Origin: Myxococcota bacterium
GTDB taxonomy: Bacteria; Myxococcota_A; UBA796; GCA-2862545
Length of the DNA: 64,000 bases
NCBI GenBank assembly: GCA_039208735.1
Contig: JBCCQY010000009.1
Location: 1-64,000 of the forward strand
Direction: 5' to 3'
Part shown: piece by piece, positions 3 to 5,959 of the stretch
Numbering within the stretch: the first letter of the stretch is position 1
Layout of the letters: each line of letters begins with the position of its first letter
Notes under the pieces: generated by a model
Told to the model about the DNA's origin: nothing
Seen by the model: the letters and a program-made list of their open reading frames with translations, nothing else
Database searches by the model: none
Translations under genes and position numbers: made by a program

Positions 3-632
3 TGGGTCCGGGACCTGGGATCGACGGAAGGCACTCGGGTCAATGGCCAACCCATCGACGGGCGCACCGTGCTTGAGCCAAGCGATTTGGTGGGCATCGG
101 TCAACACCTGCTGCGCGTCCATTCCTCGGCTGACCGAACGGCTGCGCCCGGGCCCGCGCTTGCTGAAGCGCTCGCGCACTTGCCCGAGGACCTGGCCCAA
201 CGGCTCCGTGCAGAAGCCCTCGCCGATCGTTGGGAGGCCGATGCGTGGCGCAGCTTGGTGTCGGATCCCGGAGCGTGGCTCGATCACATCGACGACCGCG
301 AGGCCTTGCTGGCCTCGATCGAAGCGCAGCTCGAGGCGTGGGGCGTGGCAGACCAGTTGGGGACGATCGACGACGACTTTGCCGCACGCTCCCTTCCTTC
401 CAGCCTTGGTGCGGCCGTAAAACGACGGGTCCAGGCCCTCCAACGATGGGTGGGGCCTTTGCTCACCCGCGCGGTGCCCGTTCGCGACCTACGAACCGCA
501 ACCAAGCGGTTTCAACTCGGCCAGCTGGCTCGGGCGCTCGAAGCGACCGGGGGCAATCGAGCCCAAGCGGCCGAGCGCCTCGGTGTTTCCCGCCAGTTCA
601 TTTACCGGCTCCTCGACCACGAAGAGTCCTAG
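3..632 (+). CDS. FHA-domain protein with C-terminal Fis-type HTH (5' end truncated by the window edge)
   Basis: Frame is open from base 3: WVRDLGSTEGTRVNGQPIDG matches the FHA C-terminal motif DLGSTNGTxVNG. C-terminus ALEATGGNRAQAAERLGVSRQFIYRLL is HTH_8. Confidence 0.85.
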   Translation, partial: WVRDLGSTEGTRVNGQPIDGRTVLEPSDLVGIGQHLLRVHSSADRTAAPGPALAEALAHLPEDLAQRLRAEALADRWEADAWRSLVSDPGAWLDHIDDREALLASIEAQLEAWGVADQLGTIDDDFAARSLPSSLGAAVKRRVQALQRWVGPLLTRAVPVRDLRTATKRFQLGQLARALEATGGNRAQAAERLGVSRQFIYRLLDHEES

Positions 633-676: not shown

Positions 677-1147
677 GTGCTCGTTGTCCTTACCTCCCTT
701 GCCGCGTCCAACGCCTCCGCCACCGACATTGGAATCCGTCGTACGCTAGGCGTGGGGGCGATTGTCGGCACCACGACAGGGGCCACCGGTCGGGTGTACC
801 TCGGGGGCCCGCGTCCTTCGTTGGATTTCGCGTTTGGCTTGACGAGCGGGGCAGGGGTCTACGACGCCGTGTTTGGGCACGTCACCGTGAACTACCGCGT
901 CGCCTTGACCGATGTGGGCGACCAGTTCGCGTGGCGGGTGGGGCTGGGAACGTTCGTGACCACGCGCGATGCCGCTGAAGATGATGGGGCCGCGGCATTC
1001 GGCCTCCGGGTGCCCCTCGGCATCGATATTGACCATGCCAAGGTGCCCTTGCAGTTGAGCGTCGAAGTTTCGCCGGTGAGTGTGTCGGTCACGCCAACGA
1101 CGCGGTTCGGGCTCGATGCGGGCCTTGCCTTACGCTACTACCTGTGA
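677..1147 (+). CDS. Secreted or outer-membrane beta-rich hypothetical protein
   Basis: GGAG RBS then GTG at 677. Signal peptide ends in ASA, followed by amphipathic beta strands and a C-terminal ALRYYL, typical of small OM barrels. Confidence 0.65.
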   Translation: MLVVLTSLAASNASATDIGIRRTLGVGAIVGTTTGATGRVYLGGPRPSLDFAFGLTSGAGVYDAVFGHVTVNYRVALTDVGDQFAWRVGLGTFVTTRDAAEDDGAAAFGLRVPLGIDIDHAKVPLQLSVEVSPVSVSVTPTTRFGLDAGLALRYYL

Positions 1148-1169: not shown

Positions 1170-2312
1170 ATGACCGATCATTCCGATCCCTTCGCGCCCT
1201 CCTCGGGGGTTCCCGTCAAGGCGGCCGCCAGTCCCGACTGGCTCGCGCTGCGCGATGAAGTCACCCAACGGTGGGAGTTGGCCGGCCACGAGGTGAAGGC
1301 GGCGCTCGAACAGACGCTTGTGGTGGCGTTCCTTGGTTCGGCGTCGTCGGGCAAGGACTCGGCCATCAAGGCGCTGTTTGGCATGGACTTTGGGCAGATC
1401 GATCCCATTCCTGGGTCCACCGACCGGGTTCGGGTGGCGCCGGTTGACGCGCAACGGCAGGTCCATGTGGTCAACGCACCCGGCTTTGGCGACCTGCGAA
1501 CCTCGGTCCAGCTCCAGGCCGAGAGCGTGCTTGAGCAGCTCGACATTGCGGTCTACGTGGTGAACGCAGATGGCGGCGCGACCATCGACGAAAAGAACGA
1601 CCTCGACCGCATTCGAGCGTTGAACCGCCCTACGCTGGTGTGTTTCAACAAGATCGATCTCATTCGGCCCGAGCAACGCGACGCTCACATCAAGGCGAGC
1701 CTCGTGCAGCTTGGGGTGAGTGACGACCAGGCCGTGGTCACGGCGTTCGACCCGATGCCGGCGCTGTCACCAGATCCCATTGGGGTCGAGGCGGTGATTC
1801 ACTGGATCCATCACCAGCTGAAGGACTCCGGTAAGGCGCTGTTGTTTGCGAAGAACCTTCGTAACAAAACAGCCGCCTGTGAACCCATCATCCAAGCGGC
1901 GGCCAAACGGGCCGCGTTGGCCGGTGCGTTGCCGATTCCGGGCGCCGACATGACGGCGGTCATGGCGGTTCAGGTGGGCATGATCACCGAGATTGCGGCC
2001 GTGTTCGACCGTCAGATTGACCAAGAGGTCATCCTCTTCGTCATCGCCGAGGCGTTGGCCGGATCGACCAAGGGCTTTGTGCGTTGGGCGGTGAATGCCG
2101 TGAAAGCAGCTGGGTTGTTGCCTGGAGGCCAGGTCGCGACGATGGCCACGAGCGCGTTGGGAGCGACGATTGCGGGCGCCACCACCTACGGAGTGGGCAA
2201 GGCCGCCATCGCCTTTCTCCAGAACGACGGCAAGCTCACGGGCGCCCAGCTTCGCGACGTGTTCGACTCGGAGGCGTTCAAGTACCACGAGCGGGTCGAC
2301 AAGTCGTCGTGA
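1170..2312 (+). CDS. Era/MMR_HSR1-like GTPase with C-terminal DUF697/YcjF-like hydrophobic domain
   Basis: G1 GSASSGKDS, G2 GST, G3 NAPG, G4 NKID. C-terminal ALPIPGAD...Q..MI..IA and Gly/Ala-rich helices. Confidence 0.85.
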   Translation: MTDHSDPFAPSSGVPVKAAASPDWLALRDEVTQRWELAGHEVKAALEQTLVVAFLGSASSGKDSAIKALFGMDFGQIDPIPGSTDRVRVAPVDAQRQVHVVNAPGFGDLRTSVQLQAESVLEQLDIAVYVVNADGGATIDEKNDLDRIRALNRPTLVCFNKIDLIRPEQRDAHIKASLVQLGVSDDQAVVTAFDPMPALSPDPIGVEAVIHWIHHQLKDSGKALLFAKNLRNKTAACEPIIQAAAKRAALAGALPIPGADMTAVMAVQVGMITEIAAVFDRQIDQEVILFVIAEALAGSTKGFVRWAVNAVKAAGLLPGGQVATMATSALGATIAGATTYGVGKAAIAFLQNDGKLTGAQLRDVFDSEAFKYHERVDKSS

Positions 2313-3433
2313 GCAGCGAGCTGACCGAACTCCTTCGCAAGTGCCATCGCGACGAGCTGTTGCCGTTGGCTGAAGCGATTGGCATCAAGCCCGAGGGCAT
2401 GACGGTTCGCCAGCTCGCCACGGCCATCGACGTACGGTTGCGCCATCGTGCGGCCAATGACCTTGAGAACCTGATCTTTCGTGGTGGGAACGGGCCCCCC
2501 TATGTGGACATGCTGCGTCGGGTGGGCCGTCGGCTGGGCCTCGATGTGGGCTACGATGCAGCACTCGCGGAACAAGCGATCGCTCGCGAACACACTCGCC
2601 AAACGTGGCATTTGCTGCCGGATCGGGAACGCGAAGCACGCTGGGAACAGTCGTTTAGCGACACCCCAGCGCCCGAGTTTGGCGACCAGGCCTTGGCCTT
2701 GCTCGAAAAGAAGTACCACCGCGGACTGGGCTGGCATCTCACCCAGTTGGCGACGAATCCGCCGATTCCCATGCCCGCGGGTTGCCTCATCGTCCCGTGG
2801 CTCATGCGGCCTCGCTACGACATTGTCGAGCCCGCCATCCTCGAGATTGCACGGTTGCGGCAGACTGTCCGGTATCGAGTCACGATCGGCATCGTAGGCT
2901 CGCCCTCGACGGGGAAGGACGCTGCCATCAACGCGTTGTTCGGCATCAACACGGGAAATGTGAGCCCGGTGGCCGGTTCGACGAAGCACGTTGAGATCCG
3001 ACGGCTCGAGGGGCCTACTGCGTTGTACCTCGTGAATACGCCAGGGATGGGCGACGTGATGGAGTCCGTGAGGGCCGAAGCCAAAGAGATCCTCGACCAC
3101 ATCGACATTTACCTCTACCTGGTGAACGCCCAAGGGGGCGTTCAGGCCCGAGAACTGGCGGATTACCAAGAGTGTGTGGCGACCGGGCGGCCGGTGCTTG
3201 CGGTGGTCAACAAGATCGACACGCTGCGGCAGGAAGACCGAGAGCGGTACCTCGCCGACGCGCGGACCAAACTCCGGGCCCCCGATGACAGCTTTGTCTC
3301 GGCCGCCTTTGACCCGTTGCCCCAGTTGGCTCCCGGTCCCTTGGGGTTGGCCAATGTTCGAGGTTGGATCACCGATCAGCTGGTTCAGCTCGGCAAGGAC
3401 CCGGCGGAATTGCCATGGGTCGACGCGGCGTAG
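2309..3433 (+). CDS. Paralogous GTPase with N-terminal YaaW-like helical domain and C-terminal G domain
   Basis: GTGA overlap with the upstream stop. G1 GSPSTGKDA, G3 NTPG, G4 NKID. N-terminal NLIFRGGNGPPYVDML and PRYDIVEPAILEIARLR resemble YaaW. Confidence 0.8.
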   Translation: MSSELTELLRKCHRDELLPLAEAIGIKPEGMTVRQLATAIDVRLRHRAANDLENLIFRGGNGPPYVDMLRRVGRRLGLDVGYDAALAEQAIAREHTRQTWHLLPDREREARWEQSFSDTPAPEFGDQALALLEKKYHRGLGWHLTQLATNPPIPMPAGCLIVPWLMRPRYDIVEPAILEIARLRQTVRYRVTIGIVGSPSTGKDAAINALFGINTGNVSPVAGSTKHVEIRRLEGPTALYLVNTPGMGDVMESVRAEAKEILDHIDIYLYLVNAQGGVQARELADYQECVATGRPVLAVVNKIDTLRQEDRERYLADARTKLRAPDDSFVSAAFDPLPQLAPGPLGLANVRGWITDQLVQLGKDPAELPWVDAA

Positions 3434-3473: not shown

Positions 3474-4559
3474 ATGAGGCGACTCGCGATGCTGCTCATC
3501 GGTGCATGCACGACCACGACCGAACCTGCCCTCGACCAGCCGCTGAGTGAGGGAGATCGGCAGGCCGCGGTGCAGTTCGGCACCACACTCACCCAACCCT
3601 CTCCCCCCGCCATTGTCTGTTCGACGCACCAAGGCTGGTTGACCCACCTGGCCGCCACGACCGACGATCCCGCTACTGCGGCGGCTGCGCTAACGGGGTT
3701 GGCCGAGTGTTCGACAACGTGGCACGAGCCCGATGTGCGGCGTGCCCTCGCTCGATGGTGGTCTCAGCCGACGCCCGTGTTGGCCAAAGGGCTGATCGCG
3801 GTGGCGGATCCGTTGGTCGCCACCTCGGAGCCAGATGATCCCGTCGTGCGAGGAATGGTGCGGTTGGCCTCCTTGCACCCCGAACTTGCAGTGAAGCTGG
3901 CCGCCCTGGAATCGCTGGACCGCCGGGCATGGGGTCGAGAGCCCGAGGTGGCCTCGGCATTCATCGATGCGATGCTGGCGGTTCGGCAGCCGGTGCTCAC
4001 CGCGACCGTCCTCCACTGGCTTCGGTTTGAGGCGTCTGAGGTTCACTTCCAGGTTCAGCCCCGGTTGCGGGCCGCGGCGACCCTGGCCCTTCGCGACATC
4101 GATCCCGGTGTGCGCGGTCGGGCTGCCCTCGCGTTGGCTAGGTTGGCGGGTGATGATCCACAGATTTTGGCCTTGGTGCGTGAACGGCTGGCCGATCCGC
4201 ACCCGTTCACCCGCGCCGCTGCGGCCAAGGCACTGGCCGATCTCGCCCAAGAGACCTTGGTGCACGATCTTGTGCCGCTGTTGGACGACCATGCCGCCAC
4301 GACGTGGCGCTCGCGGCCGTTCGCGCGGCTCGATGGAACGACGGACCGCATTCGGTTTGTCGCGTCTCCCCATGAACGGGTCGATGAAGCCGTATTGATC
4401 GGCCTGCAGCGACTAACGGCGGATCTTGCGCGACCGTATGTCATCCGTTCGATCGATCCGACCTATGCGGAGTTGGACCTTCTGTCGGCTACGCGTGACG
4501 CTAAAGCATGGTACCAGGCGGCGTACGGCGAGGAGTCGCCGCCGGAGGAGGGCGGTTGA
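3474..4559 (+). CDS. HEAT-repeat lipoprotein
   Basis: Lipobox-like LIGAC. HEAT motifs LRDIDPGVRGRAALAL and LADPHPFTRAAAAKAL. Confidence 0.8.
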   Translation: MRRLAMLLIGACTTTTEPALDQPLSEGDRQAAVQFGTTLTQPSPPAIVCSTHQGWLTHLAATTDDPATAAAALTGLAECSTTWHEPDVRRALARWWSQPTPVLAKGLIAVADPLVATSEPDDPVVRGMVRLASLHPELAVKLAALESLDRRAWGREPEVASAFIDAMLAVRQPVLTATVLHWLRFEASEVHFQVQPRLRAAATLALRDIDPGVRGRAALALARLAGDDPQILALVRERLADPHPFTRAAAAKALADLAQETLVHDLVPLLDDHAATTWRSRPFARLDGTTDRIRFVASPHERVDEAVLIGLQRLTADLARPYVIRSIDPTYAELDLLSATRDAKAWYQAAYGEESPPEEGG

Positions 4560-5959
4560 ACCGTCAGAGCGTGATCGTGACTGTCATCGCAGGCCTCGTT
4601 CTCCTGGGGCTCGCGTTGTTGTTGTACGGCGGTGGAGGGACAGACCAGCCCCAGCCGATTCCCAGCCAAGGCCCCCGCAGCGCGAAAGCGGCGAAGCGGC
4701 CCGATTCGGCCAAACGGATCGATGCGGCCAAGCTCATTCGCAAGCGTGCGATTCCCGACGATCGGCGCGCGGCCCCTGCAGGTGCGCCCAACGTCGTGTT
4801 CGTGGTGGCGTCGACCCAGCGCCGCGACCAGTGGACGGTCTACGGGGGGCCGGAAAACACGACACCGTTTCTCGCCGAGCGCGTGCGCGCAGCCGGGGTC
4901 TGGTTTGAGGATGCCCTGGCCGTCTCGGTTGACCCTCACCCCACGACCGCGGCCCTGCTCACCGGTCGCTATCCGCATGCACTCGGCGTGGTGGAGCTTC
5001 GCGAAAAGCTGAATGTGCGACGCACCCCCAACGCGGCCACGACATTGGCCGAGGTGTTTGCGGATTCAGGCTGGTTTACGATGGGACTGTCGGCCAACCA
5101 CCACGCCAATACGCGAGCGGGGCTTTCGCAGGGTTTCGATTGGTTCCGCAACAGCCAGCCCTTTTCGCTGAAGCTTGGCGCCCGCATCGATGCGCGCAAC
5201 CTCGTTCGCATCGCCCTCGACCGGTTGTCGCGGCGTAACGAGTCGGAAAAAGCGCGGCCTCTGTACCTACAGCTCGCCCTGGTGGATTCGCACAAGCCGT
5301 TTCGGGTGCCACCCGCCGAGTACAATGCGTTTGAGGCGCCGGAACACGATGTGGCGCCGTACCGGGCCACCGTGCGCCGACTCGATGACGCCCTGCGGTT
5401 CCTCGTGGACGGCCTCGGCAAGCAGGGTATCGATGAGTCGAACACCCTCTTTGTCGTGGTCGCGGACCATGGCGAGGGCCTGTCGATGCCTGAATCGCAC
5501 CGGTTCCAGCACGGTTTTGTGCTCTACGAATCTTCGGTGCGCATTCCGTGGGTGATGTGGGGCCATACGTTGCCCAAGGGCCGTGCCGTGCCCGGGCTGG
5601 CGTCTCAGATCGATGTCGTGCCGACCGTGCTGGATTGGCTCGGACTTGAGGTGCCAGCCGCCGTGGATGGGTCGAGCCACGCGAGCGCCGTGCGGGAGGG
5701 AACGACCCAGCGCGATCAGGCCTATGCCGACGCCACCTACCGAGGCATTCATCGTGCGTCGATCTGGACGACCGACCGACAGTGCCAGCGTGATTTTGGC
5801 AGTCTGCAGAACCTCGAAGATGACAGCTTTGTCGACGGGTGCTTCGATCGCAAGACCGACCCGGAATTCACGGCCTCATTCGTCGATGATGACCTGATGG
5901 CCAAACTCGATGAGCTGCACGAAACGTTGGCTGCCTTGGCCGACGCTCCAGCGAATTAG
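4556..5959 (+). CDS. Membrane-anchored sulfatase-like protein with degenerate active site
   Basis: TTGA overlap and N-terminal TM helix. Motifs PNVVFVV, LLTGRYP, ADHGE, LYES..RIP and DVVPT; no C/S-x-P-x-R motif. Confidence 0.85.
   Translation: MNRQSVIVTVIAGLVLLGLALLLYGGGGTDQPQPIPSQGPRSAKAAKRPDSAKRIDAAKLIRKRAIPDDRRAAPAGAPNVVFVVASTQRRDQWTVYGGPENTTPFLAERVRAAGVWFEDALAVSVDPHPTTAALLTGRYPHALGVVELREKLNVRRTPNAATTLAEVFADSGWFTMGLSANHHANTRAGLSQGFDWFRNSQPFSLKLGARIDARNLVRIALDRLSRRNESEKARPLYLQLALVDSHKPFRVPPAEYNAFEAPEHDVAPYRATVRRLDDALRFLVDGLGKQGIDESNTLFVVVADHGEGLSMPESHRFQHGFVLYESSVRIPWVMWGHTLPKGRAVPGLASQIDVVPTVLDWLGLEVPAAVDGSSHASAVREGTTQRDQAYADATYRGIHRASIWTTDRQCQRDFGSLQNLEDDSFVDGCFDRKTDPEFTASFVDDDLMAKLDELHETLAALADAPAN

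Follow-up and report, generated by a model that had tools for sequence, protein, structure and literature searches.

The gene pair and its features

The window analysed in this study is a stretch of 64,000 nucleotides (positions 1-64,000, forward strand) of contig JBCCQY010000009.1 in assembly GCA_039208735.1, which comes from an uncultured Myxococcota bacterium. Near its start lie two overlapping genes that encode a pair of G proteins. In both proteins, two residues of the active site are exchanged: Asp stands directly after the P-loop Lys (position K+1), and Asn opens the G3 motif at the place of the Walker B Asp. Gene 1 encodes a G domain followed by a DUF697 domain, and gene 2 encodes a JukA/YaaW-like domain followed by a G domain. 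The features of the two genes, with the evidence for each in brackets, are listed below.

1170-2312 (+): gene 1, G domain plus DUF697, 380 amino acids, from ATG at 1170 to TGA at 2310-2312 (open reading frame, ORF, and sequence)
1335-1361 (+): gene 1 G1/Walker A motif GSASSGKDS, Asp63 at K+1 (Der/Era alignment)
1413-1421 (+): gene 1 G2 region GST, Thr84 (homologue alignment)
1473-1484 (+): gene 1 G3 motif NAPG, Asn102 at the Walker B Asp position, followed by FGD (Era/Der alignment)
1647-1658 (+): gene 1 G4 motif NKID (homologue alignment)
1743-1784 (+): gene 1 G5 region of the form AFDPxPxLxPxPxG, AFDPMPALSPDPIG (homologue alignment)
1863-2231 (+): gene 1 DUF697, residues 232-354, helical and moderately hydrophobic (Pfam, E 1.2e-10)
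2309-2312 (+): GTGA overlap of the gene 2 start GTG and the gene 1 stop TGA (sequence)
2309-3433 (+): gene 2, JukA/YaaW-like domain plus G domain, 374 amino acids, from GTG at 2309 to TAG at 3431-3433 (ORF and sequence)
2309-2866 (+): gene 2 N-terminal domain, residues 1-186, divergent JukA/YaaW-like (Cbp3-like), predicted all-alpha (hhalign, PADLOC, AlphaFold2)
2897-2923 (+): gene 2 G1/Walker A motif GSPSTGKDA, Asp204 at K+1 (Era/Der alignment)
2975-2983 (+): gene 2 G2 region GST, Thr225 (homologue alignment)
3035-3046 (+): gene 2 G3 motif NTPG, Asn243, followed by MGD (Era/Der alignment)
3209-3220 (+): gene 2 G4 motif NKID (homologue alignment)
3305-3346 (+): gene 2 G5 region of the form AFDPxPxLxPxPxG, AFDPLPQLAPGPLG (homologue alignment)

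The original prediction, made from the DNA letters, had described the two genes as translationally coupled paralogues with rewired active sites. All motif coordinates in both genes were found exactly where it had placed them, and the GTGA overlap agrees with the proposed coupling. In addition, an alignment of the two G domains spans 183 residues with 40% identity (E 1e-42), and thus the domains are paralogues.

Exchange of the G1 and G3 residues

Both G domains exceeded the gathering cut-off of the Pfam family MMR_HSR1 (PF01926, 21.9 bits), gene 1 with 33.7 bits and gene 2 with 47.1 bits. The best matches of solved structure in the phmmer search were Era/Der-like (E 1e-11 for gene 2 and 2e-6 for gene 1), and in the alignments with these chains the Asp of GKD falls under the Ser of GKS, and the Asn of NxPG falls under the Asp of DTPG. 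Compared with the canonical GTPase motifs, both proteins depart from GxxxxGK[S/T] at G1 by having Asp instead of the Mg-binding Ser/Thr, and from DxxG at G3 by having Asn for Asp, with the G3 Gly retained. Both proteins retain the canonical G2 Thr and G4 NKxD.

To describe the conservation of these motifs, homologues were collected at E ≤ 0.001 (349 for gene 1 and 394 for gene 2), and the best 120 of each were aligned. Among these best homologues, Asp after GK was found in 120/120 for gene 1 and gene 2 alike, and Asn at G3 was found in 120/120 for gene 1 and 119/120 for gene 2. The G, S and T of G2 were each present in 120/120 homologues of gene 1, as was GST in 120/120 of gene 2; the N, K and D of G4 were each found in 120/120 for either gene, and the Pro-Gly of G3 plus the G-D after it were invariant for both. 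At G5, the residues A, F, D and P each occurred in 120/120 for gene 1, and for gene 2 the counts were 120/120 for A, D and P and 119/120 for F. The residue after the G3 Gly is hydrophobic (F/M/L) and is not Gln. Thus the G2 Thr, the NKID of G4 and the AFDPxPxLxPxPxG of G5, which the original prediction had reported as kept in both proteins, are confirmed and near-invariant, and the presence of swapped GKD/NxPG motifs in both genes is real and robust.

The original prediction had referred to GKD P-loops as known mainly from kinases such as PPK2 and PhnN. One explanation of the exchange is a changed chemistry, namely another metal or nucleotide preference, or phosphotransfer as in kinases without Ser/Thr at K+1. 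According to the sections of Kozlova et al. (2022, PMC9599734) that deal with this residue pair, the Ser/Thr at K+1 and the Walker B Asp are hydrogen-bonded to each other and are almost strictly conserved in P-loop nucleoside triphosphatases (NTPases). Two exceptions are named there: nucleotide monophosphate kinases have Gly at K+1, and Glu can replace the Walker B Asp. The loss of Ser/Thr at K+1 in these kinases suppresses futile hydrolysis. However, the G4 NKxD of the pair, together with its G2 and G3 residues, is that of a guanine-specific TRAFAC GTPase, and the predicted models show no lid or second-substrate domain. We regard a changed chemistry as improbable.

Co-variation of the two residues

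An exhaustive HMMER search with gene 1 against 1.84 billion cluster representatives gave 902 matches at E ≤ 0.001. The best 150 of the 902 were aligned to the G-domain profile, and 124 rows, including 2 from the window itself, covered both positions. Asp at K+1 was combined with Asn at G3 in 54 of these distant rows, and Ser/Thr at K+1 was combined with Asp at G3 in 64. The mixed combinations, Asp with Asp or Ser/Thr with Asn, were found in 0 of the 124. The remaining six rows had D+T (2), E+T (1), G+D (1), E+D (1) and D+P (1, a fragment). The co-occurrence of GKD with NxPG, which the original prediction had proposed as a check, is thus complete between the two main states.

Furthermore, when 48 GKD rows were compared with 40 canonical rows, only the G1 K+1 and G3 columns of the 182 alignment columns separated the two groups perfectly. 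The mutual information with this grouping was 0.99 for the two motif columns, and the next best of the 182 columns reached 0.81. The claim of a distinct subfamily marked by GKD plus NxPG is well borne out by this result. The two residues always travel together in the alignments, and both states have been long maintained.

A tree was built from 93 G domains after the two motif columns had been removed. Each trait changed three times on the best tree, and a single independent contrast was located on well-supported branches. For this reason, and given that a single origin was not rejected (see below), the word "compensatory" in the original prediction is a reasonable inference from structure and falls short of demonstrated co-evolution: the co-occurrence part of that claim stands in full, and the compensation part is unproven. 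As a side observation, one G-DUF697 protein with GKD/N motifs (P0244) groups with canonical relatives, and a metagenome scan found no relative.

Accessory domains of the two proteins

The G domain of gene 1 spans approximately residues 44-222, and the G domains of the pair comprise about 180 residues. Behind it, residues 232-354 matched the Pfam family DUF697 (PF05128) with 41.7 bits against a cut-off of 27.7. DUF697 was matched by 125/125 members of the gene 1 family, and 21/125 also gave weak EcsC matches within the DUF697 region. The AlphaFold2 model of gene 1 (mean predicted local distance difference test, pLDDT, 87.6; predicted template modelling score, pTM, 0.85) shows a beta/alpha G domain and then a helical bundle with helices at residues 233-379. 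The best 19-residue Kyte-Doolittle window lies at residues 261-279 and has a value of 1.72. The original prediction had spoken of a DUF697-like hydrophobic tail; the DUF697 assignment is confirmed by Pfam, and the hydrophobicity is only moderate, with this maximum.

The N-terminal domain of gene 2 had been called YaaW-like, and this call is supported by profile comparisons. A profile of 29 gene 2 N-domains matched standalone proteins of the DUF3944 plus Ubiq_cyt_C_chap type in hhalign with a probability of 98.8% (E 8e-17, 191 columns). In addition, the PADLOC JukA model matched gene 2 at E 1.9e-5 over residues 33-111, with 79 of 245 model positions covered. A bridge is provided by a sister clade of solitary proteins of about 420 amino acids with a C-terminal GKD/N G domain. 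These proteins align end to end with the gene 2 orthologues, and their N-terminal half retrieves the standalone proteins, in which Pfam finds DUF3944 and Ubiq_cyt_C_chap, the YaaW architecture. The PADLOC JukA model reached E 2e-46 in the sister clade and E 2e-67 in the standalone protein. DUF3944 (PF13099) itself was found in a standalone relative (L130) at E 1.5e-17 and in 0 of the 29 gene 2 N-domains at E ≤ 1. Homology of the gene 2 N-domain to JukA/YaaW is therefore supported, although the scores stop short of placing it in the curated family.

The AlphaFold2 model of the N-domain (pLDDT 88.9) is all-alpha with 11 helices, and the domain is joined directly, with no linker, to strand 1 and the P-loop of the G domain. 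A Foldseek search of this model against the PDB gave nothing at E ≤ 0.001, and a protein atlas search with the domain retrieved its own family alone. In a wider PDB structure comparison, the best Z score of 5.6 is within the noise for helical models, and the domain was assigned to no fold. There, the first helices (window 2318-2500, gene 2 residues 4-63) resembled SAP-type helix pairs of PIAS1, FAN1 and the Rho N-terminal domain at Z 4.6-5.6, which is noise level.

In the preprint of Li et al. on the Juk system, as far as its main text goes, JukA (formerly YaaW) is the sensor that detects phiKZ-like jumbo phages early in infection and then recruits JukB, and its Cbp3-like homologues are related to the cytochrome b chaperone Cbp3 (PF03981) (10.1101/2022.09.17.508391). 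The same text mentions JukA fused to a "Ras-like GTPase" or encoded in operons with EcsC-like proteins. It gives phage sensing in defence against nucleus-forming jumbo phages as the only tested bacterial function of the domain family.

Conservation of the pair and its solitary relatives

Of 401 sampled genomes from the phylum, 33 contain gene 2 at E ≤ 1e-20, nearly all of them in four families of the order to which the window belongs (12/20, 3/12, 5/8 and 11/12 genomes). The pair is single-copy, and roughly half of the sampled genomes of the order are without it. The only other sampled genome of the same genus (G202, 95% complete, 830 contigs) gave no gene 2 match at this threshold. In 25/30 loci of the phylum sample, gene 1 immediately precedes gene 2 and the two genes have the same orientation. 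Of the other five loci, one was cut by a contig end, one was partial, and three belonged to one genus with gene 1 on another contig. The start codon fell in the same 4-base overlap in 14/25 adjacent pairs of other genomes, and the rest had gaps of a few bases.

The species-representative genomes gave a similar picture. A GKD/N G-domain gene followed gene 1 directly in 71/80 loci, all 80 from uncultured metagenome-assembled genomes labelled Myxococcota or Deltaproteobacteria, some of these labels being clearly wrong. Among the other nine, two were at a contig edge, six were without an adjacent partner, and one (L115) had canonical GKT/DAPG motifs. Furthermore, the same sub-clades recur in the two gene trees, which follow the taxonomic families with 4 and 6 label changes (minimum 3). 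The conservation of the pair, which the original prediction had left to be checked, is clear from its adjacency and from the congruence of the trees. Inside these trees, a genome of family f1 (G097, locus L019) has its pair within the f6 clade each time, either because the pair was transferred as a whole or because the bin is misplaced. As another observation, in several loci of the lineage with unlinked genes (L132, L066, L068 and L073) an ORF of about 750-775 amino acids comes after gene 1, and two of these ORFs give weak matches of the sulfatase or phosphodiesterase type.

A fused form was seen once. P0393, a metagenome protein of 805 amino acids from an 83.7-kb contig in ENA, joins a gene 1 homologue to a gene 2 homologue in one ORF, both with GKD and NxPG. 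It is known from this one record, and instead of a true fusion it may reflect an error of assembly or an indel where the two genes overlap by 4 bases. Two further candidates were rejected: the first ~470 residues of P0394 (852 amino acids) look like a mis-called frame, with a single G domain, and the long tail of P0302 is low-complexity read-through.

The canonical locus L115 (2971-6498) encodes a G-DUF697 protein with GTASSGKTS and VDAPGFGD, then a canonical G domain with ankyrin repeats, and then another ankyrin-repeat gene. Because this canonical protein also comes as a tandem, the arrangement of a G-DUF697 protein with a second G protein seems to be older than the swap.

The solitary JukA-GTPases of about 420 amino acids have the motifs GDGSxGKD and NYPGFND, and GKD/N was found in 45/45 solitary loci with both motifs in view. 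They are part of a different module, in which a divergent sigma-54 activator (7/7 tested) and a protein of about 121 amino acids directly upstream precede the JukA-GTPase. The ~121-aa protein has a C-terminal glycine zipper; a relationship of this protein to the DUF697 of gene 1 was rejected (hhalign probability 0.4%). This three-gene module is conserved across GC contents of 0.31-0.66 (L139-L185, for example L143:1762-5242, and L131:4886-8336). The neighbours of the solitary clade include GmrSD, dynamin-like, IS66 and TnsA-like genes, and one solitary genome locus adjoins helicase, MZB and PLD genes and an integrase. In a plasmid search with the sister-clade protein, matches were limited to standalone genes of the DUF3944/Cbp3 family.

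A putative membrane switch and its alternatives

We propose that the pair is a two-gene module of one uncultured Myxococcota order and likely works as a joint nucleotide-dependent switch at the membrane, a reading to which we give about an even chance. In this proposal, the ligand of Mg2+ would be the carboxylate of Asp at K+1 instead of the Ser/Thr hydroxyl, and the amide of Asn at the Walker B position would be hydrogen-bonded to this Asp, which would retain the contact and the net charge with reversed polarity. GTP binding would be retained because the G2 Thr, the G3 Gly and the G4 NKxD are invariant. GTP binding and the switch movements would then persist, and hydrolysis would be altered, more likely slowed than abolished, which would give a long-lived GTP state. 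By analogy with JukA, the JukA-like domain might detect a trigger, for example phage factors that have been ejected, and pass the signal to its own G domain, as suggested by its linker-free junction with strand 1 and the P-loop. Pairing of this G domain with that of gene 1 might finally engage the helical DUF697 module at the membrane. A further-reaching form of the proposal, which we hold only tentatively, is that the [Ser/Thr]K+1-Asp dyad has been inverted to Asp-Asn across a clade of working GTPases, comprising the JukA-fused sensors and the DUF697 partner, with the Mg-bound Asp as proton acceptor.

Several points weigh against the joint switch, and they concern the chemistry, the exchange itself, the pairing, the JukA-like domain and the biological setting. 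As for the chemistry, the two proteins may hydrolyse no GTP at all, because in other NTPases an Asp-to-Asn mutation at the Walker B position eliminates catalysis: in the account of Kozlova et al. (PMC9599734, the sections cited above), such mutants keep NTP binding and lose activated hydrolysis, and replacement of the Ser/Thr at K+1 abolishes activity. Accordingly, both proteins could be hydrolysis-dead, GTP-locked pseudo-GTPases that hold the nucleotide as a structural cofactor. The swap in both partners, which leaves neither site canonical, and the hydrophobic F/M/L in place of a Gln after the G3 Gly would also fit this explanation. The same holds for the P-loop Asn typical of cation-dependent Era-type GTPases, which is Ser in the pair, whereas more distant canonical relatives retain Asn. 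On the other hand, the gamma-phosphate sensors, namely the G2 Thr and the G3 Gly with the following GD, are invariant, which fits a working switch better; moreover, the Asp at K+1 is a possible proton acceptor, and catalysis may have moved rather than vanished. We consider the pseudo-GTPase explanation possible but doubtful.

As for the exchange, a single clade of all 50 GKD rows was not rejected (approximately unbiased test, p 0.317), and the joint co-variation may stem from one event.

The pairing of the two proteins is questioned by the solitary clade. In 45/46 metagenome loci with a G-domain match, no second related G gene was found within 4 kb of the solitary JukA-GTPase, which has the same signature; the swap requires no paralogous partner, and the two proteins of the pair may therefore never contact each other. 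In addition, gene 1 stands without an adjacent gene 2 in one lineage (genus g28 and the loci L051, L054, L066, L068, L069 and L073), and in G217 both genes are kept on separate contigs, C19 (L132) and C85 (L133), with GKD/N retained in both. Each protein could thus act or homodimerise alone, the adjacency reflecting co-regulation after a tandem duplication. However, this explanation is hard to reconcile with the fixed order of gene 1 before gene 2 in most loci of both samples, with the start-stop overlap, with the congruent gene trees and the fused form, and with the canonical tandem of G-DUF697 and G-ankyrin genes at L115. We judge it unlikely. The membrane-associated heterodimer, which the original prediction had named as a possibility, is putative and is suggested by genomic linkage, co-phylogeny and one fusion.

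As for the JukA-like domain, residues 1-186 of gene 2 matched 0 Pfam families at E ≤ 1, and the profile comparisons indicate that this domain is very divergent.

Genomic setting

Phage defence would be the likeliest biological setting of the pair, and it is the weakest step of the proposal. Inheritance of the pair appears to be mostly vertical from the gene trees, and gene 2 gave no match in a plasmid search. The six neighbours of the pair in the window recur in 0-1 of 109 loci. Typical defence families, such as restriction or nuclease families, were not seen among 88 flanking ORFs of other loci; what these ORFs encode is a mixture of metabolic enzymes, reductases, peptidases, PAS response regulators and secreted FG-GAP/MopE proteins. 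The vertical inheritance and the ordinary neighbours would suit a housekeeping factor for the assembly or quality control of membrane proteins, in which the Cbp3-like domain is tethered through the G domains to the DUF697 membrane protein and plays no role in immunity. The homology of JukA/YaaW to the chaperone Cbp3 (PF03981), stated in the main text of the Juk preprint and seen by Pfam in the standalone relatives, points in the same direction, as does the single-copy occurrence of the pair through the four families. However, a core function would rarely be missing from so many members of the order, whereas the pair is absent from about half of those sampled, including the genome of the same genus. 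Its neighbourhood is unconserved, the sister clade adjoins defence and mobile genes, and phage sensing is the only function that the Juk preprint gives as tested in bacteria. The housekeeping explanation therefore seems to us the less probable one, though it deserves to be kept in mind beside the joint switch.

Because its neighbours are ordinary and do not recur, the pair can be described as a module complete in itself that lies among ordinary chromosomal genes. A conserved third gene was looked for among the neighbours and rejected on the same counts, and gene 1 is the sole conserved neighbour of gene 2. The neighbours in the window encode an FHA plus HTH_8 regulator, a small ORF, a HEAT-repeat protein, a sulfatase and a TetR regulator. 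Upstream, positions 3-632 (+) hold the C-terminal part of the regulator with FHA and Fis-type HTH_8 domains, which is cut by the contig start; the remaining part is without a sigma-54 AAA+ domain. The small ORF at ~680-1147 (+) has a signal-peptide-like start and an alternating, beta-strand-like pattern, and 22 bases separate its end from gene 1. It had no Pfam match and lay beside the pair in 0 of 109 other loci. Downstream, the HEAT-repeat protein at 3474-4559 (+) has a lipoprotein-like N-terminus, and its frame overlaps by about 50 bases with that of the sulfatase at 4508-5959 (+). A sigma-54 promoter for gene 1 was sought with the pattern TGGCAC-N5-TTGC at ≤2 mismatches and was rejected: 74 matches were counted against 68 ± 8 expected, with none on the + strand at 632-1170.

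Comparison with known systems

The G domains of the pair are most similar to those of Era, Der (EngA) and HydF, which gave the best solved-structure and NCBIfam matches and have a G domain of the same size, about 180 residues. The pair shares with them the G2 Thr, the G3 Gly, the G4 NKxD and a hydrophobic residue after the G3 Gly. However, it differs from them by Asp at K+1, by Asn at the opening of G3 and by the accessory DUF697 and JukA-like domains, and it is without a KH or other RNA-binding domain. In addition, the NCBIfam equivalog cut-offs (116-631 bits) are far above the 37-49 bits of the pair.

The members of the immunity-related GTPase (IRG) family and of the dynamin superfamily are membrane-associated and are activated by dimerisation of their G domains, and IRG members with a non-canonical GMS P-loop regulate members with GKS. 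The original prediction had compared the pair with paired bacterial dynamin-like proteins (BDLP). The gene 1 model indeed has the build of a G domain with a helical bundle that is found in IRG proteins (Irga6/IIGP1, Irgb6), mitofusin, BDLP and IniA. In Foldseek, it matched IRG/mitofusin/BDLP-type structures at E 4e-7 to 2e-5, with template modelling (TM) scores of 0.30-0.45 and a whole-chain root mean square deviation (rmsd) of 11-27 Å; for BDLP, the TM score was 0.32 and the rmsd 24-27 Å. Meanwhile, Dynamin_N (PF00350) stayed below its cut-off (18.5 and 19.4 bits against 27), as did IIGP. The G domains, being closest to Era/Der, contain no insertions of dynamin size, and GKD/NxxG is absent from the dynamins and IRGs in the alignments shown. 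Thus the analogy holds for the build of gene 1 and does not extend to the G domains, and the likeness of gene 1 to dynamins and IRGs is, as judged from the model, purely architectural.

The closest canonical counterparts of gene 1 are the G-DUF697 proteins P0242, P0253 and L115. These have the same domain order, are 40-43% identical to gene 1 over the full length and share the PGFGD and AFDPLP motifs with it. They differ by GKT and DAPG, and the partner at L115 is a G domain with ankyrin repeats, not a JukA-like domain with a G domain. The uncharacterised G-DUF697 family is now tied to the JukA sensor family, and GKD plus NxPG, with AFDP at G5, can serve as a sequence marker for such modules.

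The Juk system is the nearest relative in terms of function. The N-domain of gene 2 is, by profile comparison, homologous to JukA-type proteins, and the DUF697 of gene 1 weakly matches EcsC. However, gene 2 is without a detected DUF3944, its domain is far more divergent than that of the sister clade, its partner is a second G protein with DUF697, and the context of the pair is chromosomal, with no defence island. The original prediction had asked whether a family with these motifs was already described. The main text of the Juk preprint uses the word "GTPase" twice and "P-loop" never, and the GKD/NxxG motifs are undescribed in it. In our literature search, in which the papers on JukA and DUF3944 were judged by title and abstract, the motif swap, the paired form and the DUF697 partner were described nowhere; apart from the Juk preprint, none of the papers so judged deals with the GTPase fusions. 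The JukA-GTPase fusions were thus known, and the inversion of the active site was undescribed as far as this search reached.

In a clade of hundreds of proteins, both of two near-universal catalytic residues have been exchanged, and strong selection has preserved this exchange in the two architectures of the pair as well as in the solitary sister group. It is therefore of interest for P-loop catalysis, as a natural test of the roles of the K+1 Ser/Thr and the Walker B Asp. If the inverted dyad does work, the clade would let the proton-relay model of P-loop catalysis be examined in an experiment made by nature, in a family linked, through JukA, to the sensing of phages.

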